Below are positions 37,490-42,569 of a DNA stretch of 64,000 bases, piece after piece; the stretch's first letter is position 1, and every line of letters starts with the position of its first letter. The stretch lies in assembly GCF_055900595.2 (NCBI RefSeq), contig NZ_CM148325.1. The stretch is one strand, 5' to 3'. A model generated the notes under the pieces. That model was given only the letters and a program-made list of their open reading frames with translations, did not search any database and was not told where the DNA came from. A program made the translations under genes and the position numbers.

Positions 37490-39028
37490 ATGGCTTTTGC
37501 CTCATTAATTGAACGCCAGCGCATTCGCCTGCTGCTGGCGTTATTATTCGGTGCCTGCGGAACGCTGGCCTTCTCTCCTTACGACGTCTGGCCTGCGGCG
37601 ATTATTTCGCTGATGGGGCTTCAGGCGCTGACCTTTAACCGCCGTCCACTCCAGTCTGCCGCTATTGGCTTTTGCTGGGGATTTGGCCTGTTTGGCAGCG
37701 GTATTAACTGGGTCTATGTCAGCATCGCGACCTTTGGCGGAATGCCTGGCCCAGTTAACATCTTCCTGGTGGTGCTGCTGGCAGCGTATTTGTCGCTGTA
37801 TACCGGACTGTTTGCTGGCGTGCTGTCGCGTCTGTGGCCGAAAACCACCTGGCTACGCGTGGCGATTGCCGCCCCTGCTCTCTGGCAAGTGACCGAGTTT
37901 CTGCGCGGTTGGGTGCTGACTGGCTTCCCGTGGTTGCAGTTCGGCTATAGCCAGATTGACGGTCCGTTAAAAGGACTGGCACCGATAATGGGCGTGGAAG
38001 CCATTAACTTCCTGCTGATGATGGTAAGCGGCCTGCTGGCACTGGCGTTGGTCAAACGCAACTGGCGTCCGCTGGTGGTGGCCGTCGTGCTGTTTGCCCT
38101 TCCCTTCCCGCTACGTTACATCCAGTGGTTTACCCCGCAACCGGAGAAAACCATTCAGGTATCGATGGTTCAGGGCGACATTCCGCAATCGCTGAAGTGG
38201 GATGAAGGCCAGCTTCTCAATACGCTGAAGATTTACTACAACGCAACGGCACCGCTGATGGGCAAGTCATCGCTGATTATCTGGCCGGAGTCGGCGATAA
38301 CCGACCTGGAAATTAATCAGCAGCCGTTCCTCAAAGCACTGGACGGTGAGTTGCGTGATAAAGGTAGCTCGCTGGTCACCGGGATTGTCGACGCGCGTCT
38401 CAATAAGCAGAACCGCTACGATACCTACAACACCATCATCACGCTGGGTAAAGGTGCACCGTATAGCTACGAATCAGCCGATCGCTATAACAAAAACCAT
38501 CTGGTGCCGTTTGGCGAGTTTGTCCCGCTGGAGTCGATTCTGCGTCCGTTAGCACCGTTCTTTGACCTGCCGATGTCGTCATTCAGCCGTGGACCATATA
38601 TCCAACCACCGCTGTCGGTAAATGGTATTGAGCTTACTGCGGCTATTTGCTACGAGATCATTCTCGGCGAGCAAGTGCGCGATAACTTCCGCCCGGATAC
38701 CGACTATCTGCTGACTATCTCCAACGATGCGTGGTTTGGTAAGTCTATTGGCCCATGGCAGCACTTTCAGATGGCGCGAATGCGTGCGCTGGAGCTGGCG
38801 CGCCCGCTGCTGCGTAGCACCAATAATGGCATCACGGCGGTGATTGGTCCGCAGGGTGAGATTCAGGCGATGATCCCGCAATTCACCCGCGAGGTGTTGA
38901 CCACTAATGTGACGCCGACTACCGGACTCACACCGTACGCACGTACCGGCAACTGGCCGCTGTGGGTGCTGACGGCACTGTTTGGTTTTGCCGCTGTGCT
39001 GATGAGACTGCGAGCACGTCAACGTTAA
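37490..39028 (+). CDS. lnt: Apolipoprotein N-acyltransferase
   Basis: 512-aa ORF with N-terminal TM helices and a C-N hydrolase (nitrilase) domain. Confidence 0.95.
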
Positions 39029-39158
39029 TGTGAATGATGCACTGGCCAGCAAAATCGCATCATTTTTGCAGGCCAGATAAACTGTTCACACCACATCCGG
39101 TATCAACAAAACGTACTTTCTCATTGAGCTGTGGGGCGTGATTATCATGCCCCTTTTT

Positions 39159-41096
39159 TTACGGTTCAGGGATACAAGCCACATCGCCATATTGGGGATG
39201 CCGAATAATTGCCTGCGGATCAAGCGAGCGCGTCCTGTCCATTTGGATTAACCCGTTCTTCGCCATAACAAATATCTTTCTACCATCCGCTGAAAAACGA
39301 AGATGATTAACGTAGCTGGCAGGATAAACGCCAATAATCTGCCCGGCATTAATATTGAGCAGGATGACATAACCTTGCAGGCCATATGACACCAACGCTA
39401 AATACTGACCGTCCGGGCTAATACCCTCAACAGAATAAACGCTCCTGCTACACCATTGCGTCATAATGCTGGCTTGTTGATCCCCTGTGCTTATACCTGA
39501 AATCCCCTGACTATCGGCAAAAATAACCTCACCATTTTTTGGTCGGAATCCCATCGCAGAAACGACACCACGCGCATCACCTGCGGGAAAATCTTCTTTC
39601 TGATGCGTGATGGTATTGATCCGCACGATGTTACCTCTGCCTGCTCCCGGAACCAGTAATGTTTTTTCATCCGGGGAAAGTGCCATAACCCAGGCGCCTG
39701 GTTTACCGCTCGTCCCCGTCCCGTCGTATTTCTCCAGTGGGATATCCGCCACATGCTGATAAGTCACCAGATCAATCGCTGACACACTATTACTGGTGCG
39801 ATTCATCACCCAGGCTTTTGTGCCATCACGCGAGAGGATAAGGCTGTCAGGATGGGCGCCGGTGGTAATCGACTGAATAATCTCCCCCGTCGCCACGTTA
39901 ATGACCGATACTGCATTCGCTTCAAATGAAGTCGCATACAGCAACTTTTCATCGGGGCTTAACACCAGCGATCTGACGCCCTGATCTTTACAGCCACCAC
40001 AATGTTTGACTGACTTTTCTTTCGCTATGGGCGCTGTAAAGGTATGCAGGATTTTCTTTTGTCCGAGGTCGAAAACAACAATACTGTTCGTGTTTTCAAT
40101 TGCGGCATAAAACGTATTACCATCCCGACTGATCGCCATATCATGGATATCGGCAATCTCAGCGAGCAAATCACCACTGGCCTGTTCACGACTTACCGGA
40201 GCGGGTAATGTTTCCCTGAGGGCGTTGCGTTCCTCCGCTAACTGCTGCTTTTTATGCCGTCGCTCTTGTTCAATCTCCTGCGGATAAAACTCTTCACGCA
40301 GGCTTTGCCTGACCTGCAAAACTGATTCATCAATCTGCTGCTGCACAAGCCAGATAGCCCCGGTCAGTAGAAGACTACCCGCAACAATAATCCCGCCTTC
40401 CGTAACAAGTCGGTTTTGCCCAGATAAACGCGCACTCAGCCAACCCAACGCGCCCCCCGCAATCAGGCCGCCAATGTGGCAAGCGTTATCTATTCCTGTT
40501 TGCCGGGTACCATACAACAGTGTCAGCGCCACCATACCCAACAGAGAAAATACTCGCCGCTGGTTTTTATGGTGTGTACCCGCACCTGAAGAAAGCTGTG
40601 TTGCTATCGCAGCGCCAGCTATTCCCATAATTGCCCCGGATGCCCCAACGCTGATGACTATCTGCTCACTTTCGCGTAACGCATAACAGGCGCTGATGAG
40701 CCCACCAAAGATGCCGGAGAATAACCAGATAATCAGGAGTCGCCATTTCCCCAGTATCCGTTCCGCCACTGTCCCCACCACCAGGAGTGCAAACATATTC
40801 ATCAGCAAATGGGAAAAACTACTGTGCAGAAAAACACTGCTCAATAAGCGCCAGGGTTCACCCGACAACGTGAGAGAGGCAACGTTAGCGCCGAGATGGA
40901 TGAGTGCGGATTGATCGACTTCTTCATAACTCATCCATTGTGCGAGGTAACAAAATATCCCAACACATAGCGCAAAAAGGATCAGGGTTATTGCGGGTAA
41001 TTGAACATTTAACGGCTTAACCGAAGATGCAGACATAAGGTGATTCTTCCTTGAAAAGACAGGTAAAAAAGCATTTTTCCCGTGTGCAGTTATCAT
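39159..41096 (-). CDS. Rhomboid-family intramembrane serine protease fused to a C-terminal beta-propeller-like repeat domain (uncharacterized)
   Basis: 645-codon ORF. Rhomboid hallmarks read directly: WRLLSSVFLHSSFSHLLMNMF (H-x4-H-x3-N), GASGAIMG (candidate catalytic Ser, ORF residue 153), HIGGLIAG (candidate catalytic His, residue 207). A further hydrophobic helix (GGIIVAGSLLLTGAIWLV) and a charged linker follow. The C-terminal ~340 aa carry reiterated S/T-x-D-G ... N-x-V-S-V-I units. An alternative start at Met21 (41036) is possible. Confidence 0.8.
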   Translation of the reverse strand: MITAHGKNAFLPVFSRKNHLMSASSVKPLNVQLPAITLILFALCVGIFCYLAQWMSYEEVDQSALIHLGANVASLTLSGEPWRLLSSVFLHSSFSHLLMNMFALLVVGTVAERILGKWRLLIIWLFSGIFGGLISACYALRESEQIVISVGASGAIMGIAGAAIATQLSSGAGTHHKNQRRVFSLLGMVALTLLYGTRQTGIDNACHIGGLIAGGALGWLSARLSGQNRLVTEGGIIVAGSLLLTGAIWLVQQQIDESVLQVRQSLREEFYPQEIEQERRHKKQQLAEERNALRETLPAPVSREQASGDLLAEIADIHDMAISRDGNTFYAAIENTNSIVVFDLGQKKILHTFTAPIAKEKSVKHCGGCKDQGVRSLVLSPDEKLLYATSFEANAVSVINVATGEIIQSITTGAHPDSLILSRDGTKAWVMNRTSNSVSAIDLVTYQHVADIPLEKYDGTGTSGKPGAWVMALSPDEKTLLVPGAGRGNIVRINTITHQKEDFPAGDARGVVSAMGFRPKNGEVIFADSQGISGISTGDQQASIMTQWCSRSVYSVEGISPDGQYLALVSYGLQGYVILLNINAGQIIGVYPASYVNHLRFSADGRKIFVMAKNGLIQMDRTRSLDPQAIIRHPQYGDVACIPEP

Positions 41097-41491
41097 CCCG
41101 GCAAACGTCCCATACCGAAAAGTTAACTCTGTCCGAAATATGACTTTTTCAGCCTGAAATTACAATCGTAATTAATTCATCCCTAAGTATTTTTTGGCAT
41201 GTAAGTTGCTTTATTTACTGTGTAAGCAATGAAATCAGCCGCAACGCAACCGGGTTGCACCAACACAAATCAGCGGTAGCACCAAAAAGGTGCGGTTTAA
41301 GAATTTTGCTTCGGAATGGTGCGGCGCATCTCGCAAAAACAAACAATAAAACATCAATATCTTTACATTTAGCCAAACTAAATGTTACCTAACAAACACA
41401 ACACTGCACAATAAAGTTGCAGATGATAACAACACAAACACTCACAACGGGTATCCATGCGTTCTTAACGCAGAAGATAAAGGAGTTGGAT

Positions 41492-42400
41492 ATGCAATTA
41501 CGTAAACCTGCCACAGCAATCCTGGCCCTGGCGCTTTCCGCAGGACTGGCACAGGCAGATGACGCCGCCCCGGCAGCGGGCAGTACGCTGGACAAAATCG
41601 CCAAAAACGGTGTGATTGTCGTCGGTCACCGTGAATCTTCAGTACCTTTCTCTTATTACGACAATCAGCAAAAAGTGGTGGGTTACTCGCAGGATTACTC
41701 CAACGCCATTGTTGAAGCAGTGAAAAAGAAACTCAACAAACCGGACTTGCAGGTGAAACTGATTCCGATCACCTCACAAAACCGTATTCCTCTGCTGCAA
41801 AACGGCACTTTCGATTTTGAATGTGGTTCTACCACCAACAACGTCGAACGCCAAAAACAGGCGGCTTTCTCTGACACTATTTTCGTGGTCGGTACGCGCC
41901 TGCTGACCAAAAAGGGCGGCGATATCAAAGATTTTGCCGACCTGAAAGGCAAAGCCGTAGTCGTTACTTCCGGCACTACCTCTGAAGTTTTGCTCAACAA
42001 ACTGAATGAAGAGCAAAAAATGAATATGCGCATCATCAGCGCCAAAGATCACGGTGACTCTTTCCGCACCCTGGAAAGCGGTCGTGCCGTTGCCTTTATG
42101 ATGGATGACGCTCTGTTAGCCGGTGAGCGAGCGAAAGCGAAGAAACCAGACAACTGGGAAATCGTCGGCAAGCCGCAGTCTCAGGAAGCCTACGGTTGCA
42201 TGTTGCGTAAAGACGATCCGCAGTTCAAAAAGCTGATGGATGACACTATCGCTCAGGTGCAGACCTCCGGTGAAGCGGAAAAATGGTTTGATAAGTGGTT
42301 CAAAAATCCAATTCCGCCGAAAAACCTGAACATGAATTTCGAACTGTCGGACGAAATGAAAGCACTGTTCAAAGAACCGAATGACAAGGCACTGAACTAA
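41492..42400 (+). CDS. gltI: Glutamate/aspartate ABC transporter periplasmic binding protein
   Basis: ORF 41417-42400; start placed at MQLRKPATAILALALSAGLAQA (signal peptide), 302 aa. Confidence 0.93.
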   Translation: MQLRKPATAILALALSAGLAQADDAAPAAGSTLDKIAKNGVIVVGHRESSVPFSYYDNQQKVVGYSQDYSNAIVEAVKKKLNKPDLQVKLIPITSQNRIPLLQNGTFDFECGSTTNNVERQKQAAFSDTIFVVGTRLLTKKGGDIKDFADLKGKAVVVTSGTTSEVLLNKLNEEQKMNMRIISAKDHGDSFRTLESGRAVAFMMDDALLAGERAKAKKPDNWEIVGKPQSQEAYGCMLRKDDPQFKKLMDDTIAQVQTSGEAEKWFDKWFKNPIPPKNLNMNFELSDEMKALFKEPNDKALN

Positions 42401-42556
42401 TTACAAGAACCAGGGGCGGAAATTCCAGCCCTCTCGATTGTTACGTAGCACGGACAGACTATACGCCTGATGGTCGTTCCCCATCGGGCCTGAAAACCGC
42501 AATACGCTGGGTAACAATCTTCGAGGGTAGCAGTTAACGCTGCTACCCTCTTTTTT
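42395..42556 (+). ncRNA. sroC: SroC-like sRNA derived from the gltI-gltJ spacer (3' end at terminator); 5' end approximate
   Basis: The gltI-gltJ intergenic region ends in a strong hairpin gagggtagcag-ttaac-gctgctaccctc followed by tttttt (42523-42556). Position matches the SroC sRNA described for the gltIJKL mRNA in E. coli and Salmonella. Confidence 0.55.
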
Positions 42557-42569
42557 CTGGAGTAGATTT

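Follow-up and report, generated by a model that had tools for sequence, protein, structure and literature searches.

Escherichia coli Rhom7: a rhomboid-family protein with a predicted periplasmic seven-bladed YVTN propeller, encoded between gltI and lnt

The interval between lnt and gltI in Escherichia coli raises the question of what protein is encoded by a long minus-strand reading frame located there, in which a first-pass annotation had recognized a rhomboid core joined to a C-terminal repeat domain, and of what this additional domain might contribute to an intramembrane protease. The frame lies in a 64,000-nucleotide stretch of contig NZ_CM148325.1 (assembly GCF_055900595.2), called the window below. 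The explanation that we consider highly probable is that the gene is the orthologue of Rhom7, a 6+1 rhomboid with a tethered periplasmic propeller, and a long-standing resident of the gltI-lnt interval.

The 645-codon frame at 39159..41096 is present as described, opening with the first ATG and free of internal stops, but the real start of rhom7 is almost certainly Met21 of this frame, as judged from three sets of N-termini. The RefSeq annotation of the 100%-identical strain Z0117EC0005 gives a protein of 625 residues (WP_032302679.1), the N-termini of the full-length homologues coincide with Met21 in the alignment, save for two exceptions that begin further in, and the published Rhom7 protein begins with MSASSVKPLN. 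The original frame is accordingly 60 nt longer upstream than the coding sequence, and the spacer to gltI, earlier put at about 390 bp, becomes 455 bp (41037..41491) because of the Met21 start. The catalytic residues are Ser133 and His187 in the true 625-residue numbering, which is used below unless stated otherwise.

39159..41036, minus strand: rhom7 coding sequence, 625 amino acids, stop codon at 39159-39161 (open reading frame list, RefSeq start, homologue N-termini and published Rhom7)

Comparisons of sequence and gene order indicate orthology between the encoded E. coli protein and Rhom7 from Shigella sonnei (SSON_0610, UniProt Q3Z4D6), which is already named and assayed. It shows about 94% identity at 100% coverage to the S. 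sonnei proteins in our set (P0005 and P0011); the published 625-residue sequence agrees with it end to end, from MSASSVKPLN to ACIPEP, and Ser133 and His187 carry identical numbers in both. The S. sonnei contig has the order gltLKJI - gene - lnt - corC - ybeY - ybeZ, and the order in the window is the same. The novelty implied by the first-pass annotation is thus lost, as the frame encodes a widespread and already characterised protein (PMC7232013).

Rhom7 was named and shown to be active in S. sonnei by Liu et al. (EMBO J 2020; PMC7232013). When overexpressed it cleaves orphan FdnH and HybA; the transmembrane (TM) segments that it cuts contain a helix-breaking proline and include the TMD of TatA as well as the anchors at the C-termini of FdnH and HybA. 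Once cut, the orphan subunit becomes open to being degraded further (PMC7232013). The S133A and H187A forms are inactive in S. sonnei, while TM7 and the C-terminal domain are not required for an artificial TatA-TMD substrate to be cut (PMC7232013). The native level of Rhom7 is too low for detectable cleavage, the cause stated in the paper being low expression, and the glpG rhom7 double mutant of S. sonnei has no phenotype (PMC7232013). In that work the deletions of TM7 and the C-terminal domain were assayed on the TatA-TMD reporter only. These activity data are for the S. sonnei protein, from which the window allele differs at about 6% of residues. The word "propeller" occurs 0 times in PMC7232013, no other paper in the literature searched describes the fold of the Rhom7 C-terminal domain, and the same literature yielded nothing relevant on rhomboid-propeller or rhomboid-YVTN fusions; the assignment of the propeller fold is the only addition made here to the literature searched.

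The domain and motif tests identify the window protein as a rhomboid intramembrane serine protease (PF01694 / MEROPS S54). The Pfam Rhomboid model PF01694 matches residues 79-221 with an E-value of 3.8e-29 (102 bits), spanning model positions 2-140 of 143, and the motifs reported earlier were recovered at the places claimed for them; in the 645-codon numbering these are residues 91 (HSSFSHLLMN), 151 (GASGAIMG) and 207 (HIGGLIAG). The protein scores 44.7 bits with the rhombosortase model TIGR03902, against a cut-off of 84.

40428..40994, minus strand: rhomboid six-TM catalytic core, residues 15-203 (PF01694, AF2 helices and GlpG structure matches)
40848..40853, minus strand: Trp62-Arg63, the L1-loop WR motif (unchanged across the 15 aligned sequences)
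40797..40826, minus strand: TM2 motif HSSFSHLLMN, with His71, His76 and Asn80 (15-sequence alignment)
40638..40640, minus strand: codon of the catalytic Ser133, in the GASG motif of TM4 (invariant G131-A-S133-G134)
40476..40478, minus strand: codon of the catalytic His187, in HIGGLIAGG of TM6, with a GxxxG at G190/G194 (H187, G190 and G194 invariant)

The AF2 model predicts the core helices at residues 15-34, 74-95, 97-122, 132-149, 152-178 and 184-203, and the core sequence matches the solved GlpG structures 2nr9 and 5f5d. Within TM2, His76 and Asn80 are invariant and His71 nearly so in the alignment of 15 sequences. The GASG and His187 motifs fall in the predicted helices 132-149 and 184-203, respectively, and are invariant in the 15 homologues.

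Beyond the core, the extra helix, charged linker and repeat domain of the first-pass annotation are all found in the AF2 model.

40341..40412, minus strand: seventh TM helix, residues 209-232 (AF2 helix, hydropathy and Phobius on Rhom7)
40173..40340, minus strand: charged helical linker, residues 233-288 (AF2 helices 237-250 and 253-273)
39162..40172, minus strand: YVTN-type seven-bladed beta-propeller, predicted to be periplasmic, residues 289-625, with Cys346/Cys349 and Cys529/Cys621 (TIGR02276, AF2 and Foldseek)

The hydropathy peak for TM7 lies at 230-253 in the 645-codon numbering, and seven TMDs had been predicted for Rhom7 with Phobius (PMC7232013). The linker is rich in charge (9 K/R and 12 D/E over residues 231-290) and closes with a conserved motif, LPxPVSxExAxG; all 15 aligned sequences share the linker residues R243, A286 and G288.

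According to the structural model, the C-terminal domain is a closed seven-bladed YVTN beta-propeller. The model has a mean pLDDT of 81.4 and shows 7 TM helices; its 27 strands fall within residues 289 to 600, and the sequence contains seven [ST]-x-[DN]-[GE]-type units that start at residues ~300, 357, 399, 451, 494, 536 and 579; both the blade count and the topology are predictions from a shallow alignment of 15 sequences. The NCBIfam YVTN repeat model TIGR02276 matches at 60.2 bits, its cut-off being 27.85. In Foldseek searches with the model the best PDB match is 1l0q, followed by G-beta and TLE1. The YVTN propeller 1l0q, G-beta and TLE1 are all seven-bladed propellers. A sequence search with phmmer also reaches 1l0q (7.9e-26), and the AFDB matches are headed by full-length rhomboid-propeller proteins, with YncE and lactonase propellers coming after them. 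Of the earlier description, which spoke of six or seven blades of PD40/YVTN type, the YVTN/YncE-like character holds, with seven units, but the PD40 affiliation does not, since none of the 18 Pfam domains that match at E <= 10 is PD40. The YncE equivalog NF052280 is matched only locally, over one or two blades, at 35.3 bits against a cut-off of 400. When the domain was searched against 1.8 billion representatives, the bulk of the matches were giant YVTN repeat proteins aligned to blades 2-3; this confirms the repeat class and provides no functional lead.

The predicted placement of the propeller on the periplasmic side, as proposed earlier, is favored by the charge bias of the loops together with two putative conserved disulfides. 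The cytoplasmic loops contain 9 K/R and 0 D/E, versus 3 K/R and 7 D/E in the periplasmic ones. The cysteines of the domain tend to be lost in pairs: C346 and C349 are both absent from the Klebsiella sequences, and C529 and the C-terminal Cys are both gone in another homologue (P0046). It appears from this pattern that the propeller is stabilised by disulfides, the putative pairs being C346/C349 and C529/C621.

The suspicion that the locus varies between strains was borne out: of 5426 complete E. coli genomes, 3232 have the gene and 2186 an empty allele, so that about 40% of E. coli are without rhom7. The empty allele, that of K-12 included, is an unrelated 167-bp spacer, which in K-12 stands in place of window positions 39013..41246 and shares no detectable similarity with the window; alignment to K-12 breaks off between 41246 and 41247. 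O157:H7 likewise has the empty allele. The IS5 copy that the first-pass annotation placed in the K-12 lnt-gltI interval does exist, but it is not what replaced the gene, and IS5 was rejected as the cause of the loss in K-12 since IS5D sits upstream of gltI, at a point equivalent to about window positions 41385-41392. An apparent remnant allele in strain BS-01, with 1.6 kb replacing most of the gene and a low-complexity P/G/R/K translation, was taken for an assembly artefact. In BS-01, lnt is flagged as a pseudogene.

41037..41246, strand not assigned: 210 bp upstream of rhom7, found only in gene-bearing strains and presumed to be the promoter region (K-12 alignment break)
39133..39153, plus strand: GC-rich hairpin with T7 after it, in the gap where lnt and rhom7 converge (terminator scan)

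The rhom7 promoter scan found no sigma-70-like site on the minus strand, which is consistent with the reported low expression and is otherwise uninformative. The hairpin, which abuts the rhom7 stop codon, is terminator-like for lnt in its sequence.

In Klebsiella aerogenes and two further relatives, orthologues with 49-57% identity occupy the gltI-lnt interval as well, and the family is additionally found in Burkholderiales and Neisseriales. The dS of rhom7 is about the same as that of the neighboring lnt and gltI, while its dN/dS is 0.18-0.38 in both core and propeller, versus 0.01-0.15 for lnt and gltI. A recent horizontal acquisition was rejected on the basis of this dS, the unremarkable GC content and the occupation of the same locus in other Enterobacteriaceae. 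Given its retention at the same gltI-lnt site in K. aerogenes and the two further relatives, rhom7 is probably an old, fast-evolving and weakly constrained resident of this interval in Enterobacteriaceae that has been lost in part of E. coli. When the open reading frames flanking full-length homologues were clustered for 15 loci in distant genera, no neighbor was common to more than two or three loci besides the rhomboid itself; hence there is no operon-encoded substrate candidate.

Taken together, these features indicate that Rhom7 is most probably an inner-membrane rhomboid protease of the 6+1 type with a cytoplasmic N-terminus, whose six-TM core holds the Ser133-His187 dyad and opens to the periplasmic leaflet. 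TM7 would bring the chain back across the membrane, and a helical, charged linker some 55 residues long would tether the seven-bladed YVTN propeller in the periplasm, probably outside the catalytic machinery. The propeller may perhaps serve as an exosite on the periplasmic side, docking or filtering folded substrate ectodomains, a possibility that we put forward tentatively; that it is the exosite for the ectodomains of Tat-exported, tail-anchored Fe-S subunits, or for those of another client, is a more doubtful proposal. Were the exosite reading true, Rhom7-type rhomboids would choose their substrates by the ectodomain as well as by TM-helix instability.

The survival of activity upon removal of the C-terminal domain, and the lack of detectable cleavage by native Rhom7, would also suit a regulatory or autoinhibitory sensor, in which the propeller caps the active site at its periplasmic mouth, holding cleavage back until a ligand or an envelope condition shifts it. 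The linker is of interest in this regard, since its strongly conserved motif is extended and, with the invariant R243, A286 and G288, this segment could contact the core. However, the published explanation for the absent native cleavage is low expression and not inhibition, no ligand-binding signature was found in the domain, and the invariant propeller positions D362, G393, P396, N416 and G585 are, in our reading, of the kinds that are usually structural in propeller repeats, so that a sensor role is unlikely. The domain is very improbably a second enzyme, of the lactonase or PQQ-associated propeller type, that would make the protein bifunctional: there are weak Pfam/NCBIfam matches to Lactonase (3.7e-4), the PQQ-associated propeller (2.3e-14) and hydrazine synthase beta, but all score far under the curated cut-offs (53 bits versus 287 for the PQQ-associated propeller) and are limited to the canonical YVTN blades 2-3, which also match thousands of giant repeat proteins. 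Moreover, the alignment has no catalytic residues conserved across the family.

A different view would hold that rhom7 is near neutral in present-day E. coli and in the process of being lost, and is retained by inertia and not for any propeller-specific function. Its absence from 2186 of the 5426 complete genomes fits with this, as do the annotated frameshift in strain HS, the many clusters of truncated proteins (e.g. P0029, 440 residues, propeller only, 640 members), a dN/dS several-fold higher than that of the neighbors and the lack of a phenotype in S. sonnei mutants. Yet dN/dS stays well under 1 in both domains, the catalytic motifs do not vary, four of the five alleles examined keep an intact reading frame, and the same locus is kept in K. 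aerogenes and the two further relatives, with the family extending to Burkholderiales and Neisseriales; we therefore regard neutrality as rather improbable. The exosite remains our preferred, if tentative, reading.

The discovery value of the locus is small, as Rhom7 is named, assayed, included in rhomboid reviews and annotated in all the RefSeq E. coli genomes where it occurs. Its "CTD" can now be described as a predicted seven-bladed YVTN propeller, probably disulfide-bonded and held in the periplasm through TM7 and a helical linker. K-12 and O157:H7, both with the empty allele, are standard laboratory backgrounds, which may account for the usual treatment of GlpG as the single rhomboid of E. 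coli.

E. coli GlpG has the same catalytic fold and motifs as Rhom7, and HybA is a substrate common to Rhom7 and the GlpG of S. sonnei (PMC7232013). In contrast to Rhom7, GlpG has six TM helices and an N-terminal cytoplasmic domain, and is without a C-terminal domain. The window protein has only 14 residues before TM1, the GlpG-like N-terminal domain being absent, and it scores 44.2 and 39.1 bits with the GlpG equivalog models TIGR04239 and NF008155, against cut-offs of 250 and 335, respectively. The Bacillus subtilis YqgP/GluP type follows the same general design as Rhom7, in that the rhomboid core is joined through a seventh TM helix to a C-terminal repeat domain outside the cytoplasm, but this domain consists of TPRs where Rhom7 has a propeller. 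A further difference is the N-terminal cytosolic domain of YqgP, which is absent in the window protein. No TPR family matches the window protein in Pfam, and the many core homologues that bear TPR domains and are named GluP match the core only. Seven-bladed propellers of the YVTN/YncE type (1l0q, 3vgz) match the C-terminal domain in sequence and fold, but these are secreted or surface proteins and not tethered to a protease as in Rhom7.

AarA of Providencia stuartii belongs to the same 6+1 subfamily as Rhom7, and both cleave the TatA TMD; the two proteins are about 30% identical (PMC7232013). AarA differs in that its 281 residues stop within the linker helix, and it is consequently without a propeller. 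Some Providencia genomes encode a propeller-bearing relative of 677-680 residues; between its N-terminal ~280 residues and the short AarA-like proteins that other Providencia genomes encode, identity is about 67%. This split between long and short forms offers a natural comparison for the contribution of the propeller, and the roughly 60/40 presence and absence of rhom7 in E. coli offers a second.

On sequence and gene context, the window protein is the orthologue of Rhom7 of Shigella sonnei (SSON_0610), which together with GlpG was the only protein recovered in a search for rhomboids of that organism, and which owes its name to its seven predicted TMDs (Liu et al., EMBO J 2020, PMC7232013). 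The Rhom7 sequence printed in Figure EV1 of that study (625 aa, MSASSVKPLN to ACIPEP) agrees with the window protein along its whole length. The identity to S. sonnei database proteins is 94%, and the S. sonnei gene context, gltLKJI-X-lnt-corC-ybeY-ybeZ, is the same. In the window, lnt is preceded by ybeZ, ybeY and corC, and gltI is followed by gltJ, gltK and gltL; the central features are:

37490..39028, plus strand: lnt, one flank of the rhom7 ORF
39159..41096, minus strand: rhom7-containing ORF, uninterrupted in the ORF list, 645 codons from the first ATG
39159..41036, minus strand: rhom7 CDS, 625 aa, starting at Met21 of the ORF
start at 41492, plus strand: gltI, the other flank of the rhom7 ORF

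Seven complete E. coli chromosomes match bases 38900-41500 at 100% identity, which identifies the window as E. coli. In one of the seven, Z0117EC0005, RefSeq annotates a "rhomboid family intramembrane serine protease" of 625 aa (WP_032302679.1) whose first residue is Met21 of the ORF. The aligned full-length homologues, save for two that begin further in, and the printed Rhom7 sequence (PMC7232013) start at this position too; the 625-residue numbering and the CDS 39159..41036 were therefore adopted. At 39133-39153 (plus strand), a GC-rich hairpin of 9 bp with T7 after it lies 105 bp past the lnt stop codon and abuts that of rhom7; as its T-run lies on the lnt side only, rhom7 is without an obvious intrinsic terminator of its own. 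The gltI-gltJ spacer contains the sRNA SroC (42396-42558, plus strand; Rfam RF00369, 174.8 bits, full length), as expected for this locus.

The catalytic residues of Rhom7 are Ser133 and His187, and S133A and H187A each stop cleavage of a TatA-TMD reporter (PMC7232013). Expressed from a plasmid, Rhom7 cuts the TMDs of HybO, HybA and FdnH, as well as full-length HybA, and cuts FdnH only as an orphan, in the absence of its partner FdnI; for both HybA and FdnH, a conserved TMD proline is required (PMC7232013). The novelty implied by the first-pass annotation is thereby lost, since the protein is already characterised and named, an outcome that the annotation had itself set against its reading. 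The word "propeller" is absent from Liu et al. (PMC7232013) and from a 2025 review, and no link between rhomboids and YVTN or propeller domains was found in the literature searched; the assignment of the C-terminal fold is thus a small addition, at which automatic annotation (precomputed Pfam domains of homologues) already hints.

The N-terminal half matches the Pfam Rhomboid model PF01694 (E 3.8e-29). An alignment of 15 full-length homologues (26-94% identity) shows invariant W62-R63 (the L1 "WR" motif), H76 and N80 (the TM2 HxxxN), G131-A-S133-G134, H187, G190 and G194, and the three rhomboid motifs that had been picked out by eye lie exactly where they were placed. Scores against the NCBIfam GlpG model (44 bits, cut-off 250) and rhombosortase model (45 bits, cut-off 84) fall below threshold, indicating that the protein belongs to neither group. 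An AlphaFold2 model built on the same alignment (mean pLDDT 81.4) contains a core of six helices, a seventh at 209-232, two charged helices spanning 237-273, and 27 strands between residues 289 and 600, with seven repeat units starting near residues 300, 357, 399, 451, 494, 536 and 579. Its top Foldseek match in the PDB is the archaeal YVTN propeller 1l0q (3.4e-17; sequence match 7.9e-26), followed by G-beta, TLE1 and hydrazine synthase beta, all of them seven-bladed propellers. The architecture of core, extra TM helix, charged linker and propeller was thus read correctly from raw sequence; the repeats are of the YVTN type (TIGR02276, 60 bits, cut-off 28) and not PD40, for which a Pfam search of the window protein matched no model. 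When used as sole query, the C-terminal domain retrieved 21,320 relatives at E <= 0.001, mostly giant repeat proteins matching blades 2-3, which marks it as a generic YVTN propeller with no specialised enzyme fold. At the linker end, an LPxPVSxExAxG motif (residues 274-288, window ~40173-40217) is conserved from E. coli to Burkholderiales more strongly than most of the propeller, A286 and G288 being invariant.

Of the predicted loops, the cytoplasmic ones carry 9 K/R and no D/E and the short periplasmic ones 3 K/R and 7 D/E, which fits a topology with the N-terminus inside and the C-terminal domain outside. This domain has four cysteines, all present in the Providencia homologues: C346 and C349 are both absent from two Klebsiella-type sequences, and C529 and the C-terminal Cys, found in nearly all aligned members, are both missing from the protein cluster P0046. 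Such paired loss suggests two putative disulfides, and it would be reasonable to place the domain in an oxidising compartment.

The S. sonnei protein acts through Ser133/His187 as a serine protease on TM helices that are destabilised by proline, in single-pass proteins (PMC7232013). The propeller would lie in the periplasm, tethered through the seventh helix and the helical linker; it would be dispensable for catalysis, and would most likely assist in selecting or holding the ectodomains of substrates. The main alternative is that its role is regulatory. It may also be that rhom7 is near-neutral in E. coli. At native expression Rhom7 is too scarce for detectable cleavage, and no phenotype emerged from growth, Biolog, oxidative-stress and T3SS assays of a glpG rhom7 double mutant (PMC7232013). 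The dS of rhom7 matches that of lnt and gltI; its dN/dS is 0.18-0.38, alike in core and propeller, and that of these neighbours 0.01-0.15. Truncated protein clusters are common, and in an assembly of the commensal E. coli HS the annotation makes rhom7 a pseudogene (L086 2201-4077), through a frameshift that may be genuine or a sequencing error.

The suspicion that the locus is strain-variable was borne out: rhom7 was found in 3232 of the 5426 complete E. coli genomes, in each case between lnt and gltI, and 2186, including K-12 and an O157:H7 strain, carry an empty allele (94.7-100% identity) in which an unrelated spacer of 167 bp takes the place of window 39013..41246 (2234 bp). By eye, the spacer of K-12-type strains contains a REP-like GCCGGATGCGGC...TTATCCGG element. 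Because the break lies 16 bp ahead of the lnt stop codon, the alleles differ in the C-terminal residues of Lnt (...LMRLRARQR versus ...LMSLRQRRK). The IS5 copy expected in K-12 is indeed present, as IS5D, a separate insertion upstream of gltI that is distinct from the spacer; its insertion point corresponds to window ~41385-41392, some 100 bp ahead of gltI, and the K-12 alignments on its two sides share a few bases, as expected of a short target-site duplication. Propeller-only E. coli fragments of 235-489 aa (clusters P0025 and P0029; AFDB A0A376KY81, A0A484VT88 and A0A484VRC0, labelled "Outer membrane protein") are probably mis-annotated products of split or frameshifted rhom7 genes. In E. 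coli BS-01 (L001 5143-6751), 1.6 kb of sequence that is P/G/R/K low-complexity in all frames stands in place of most of rhom7, beside an lnt that is marked as a pseudogene; an assembly artefact seems likelier here than a biological change. Two contigs of 2.4-2.7 kb in "Proteobacteria" and "Collinsella sp." MAGs (L004, L005), whose gene shares 94-95% identity with E. coli rhom7, probably come from E. coli itself, through contamination or misbinning of these GTDB representative genomes.

Orthologues with 49-57% identity adjoin lnt in Klebsiella aerogenes and in two relatives from sequencing-run assemblies, and two of the three loci also reach gltI. Judged from these three, rhom7 is probably ancestral at this locus, in which case the empty allele would be a deletion. 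Full-length rhomboid-propeller proteins are also found in Budvicia, Cedecea, Providencia, Burkholderia, Paraburkholderia, Chromobacterium, Andreprevotia and Pseudoduganella, with no conserved neighbour genes among the distant-genus loci compared. In Providencia, propeller-bearing forms of 677-680 aa (P. alcalifaciens and P. rettgeri PROV023; L011, L012) stand against AarA-like proteins of 295-299 aa (P. vermicola and P. rettgeri RB151; L024, L041). The latter share about 67% identity with the long form over its N-terminal ~280 residues and end inside the linker helix, with no propeller remnant downstream of the gene at either locus. P. stuartii AarA (281 aa) has the same end point in the linker helix in the published alignment (PMC7232013). 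Taken together with the Providencia pattern, this suggests that the classic AarA belongs to the Rhom7 subfamily as a member without a propeller.
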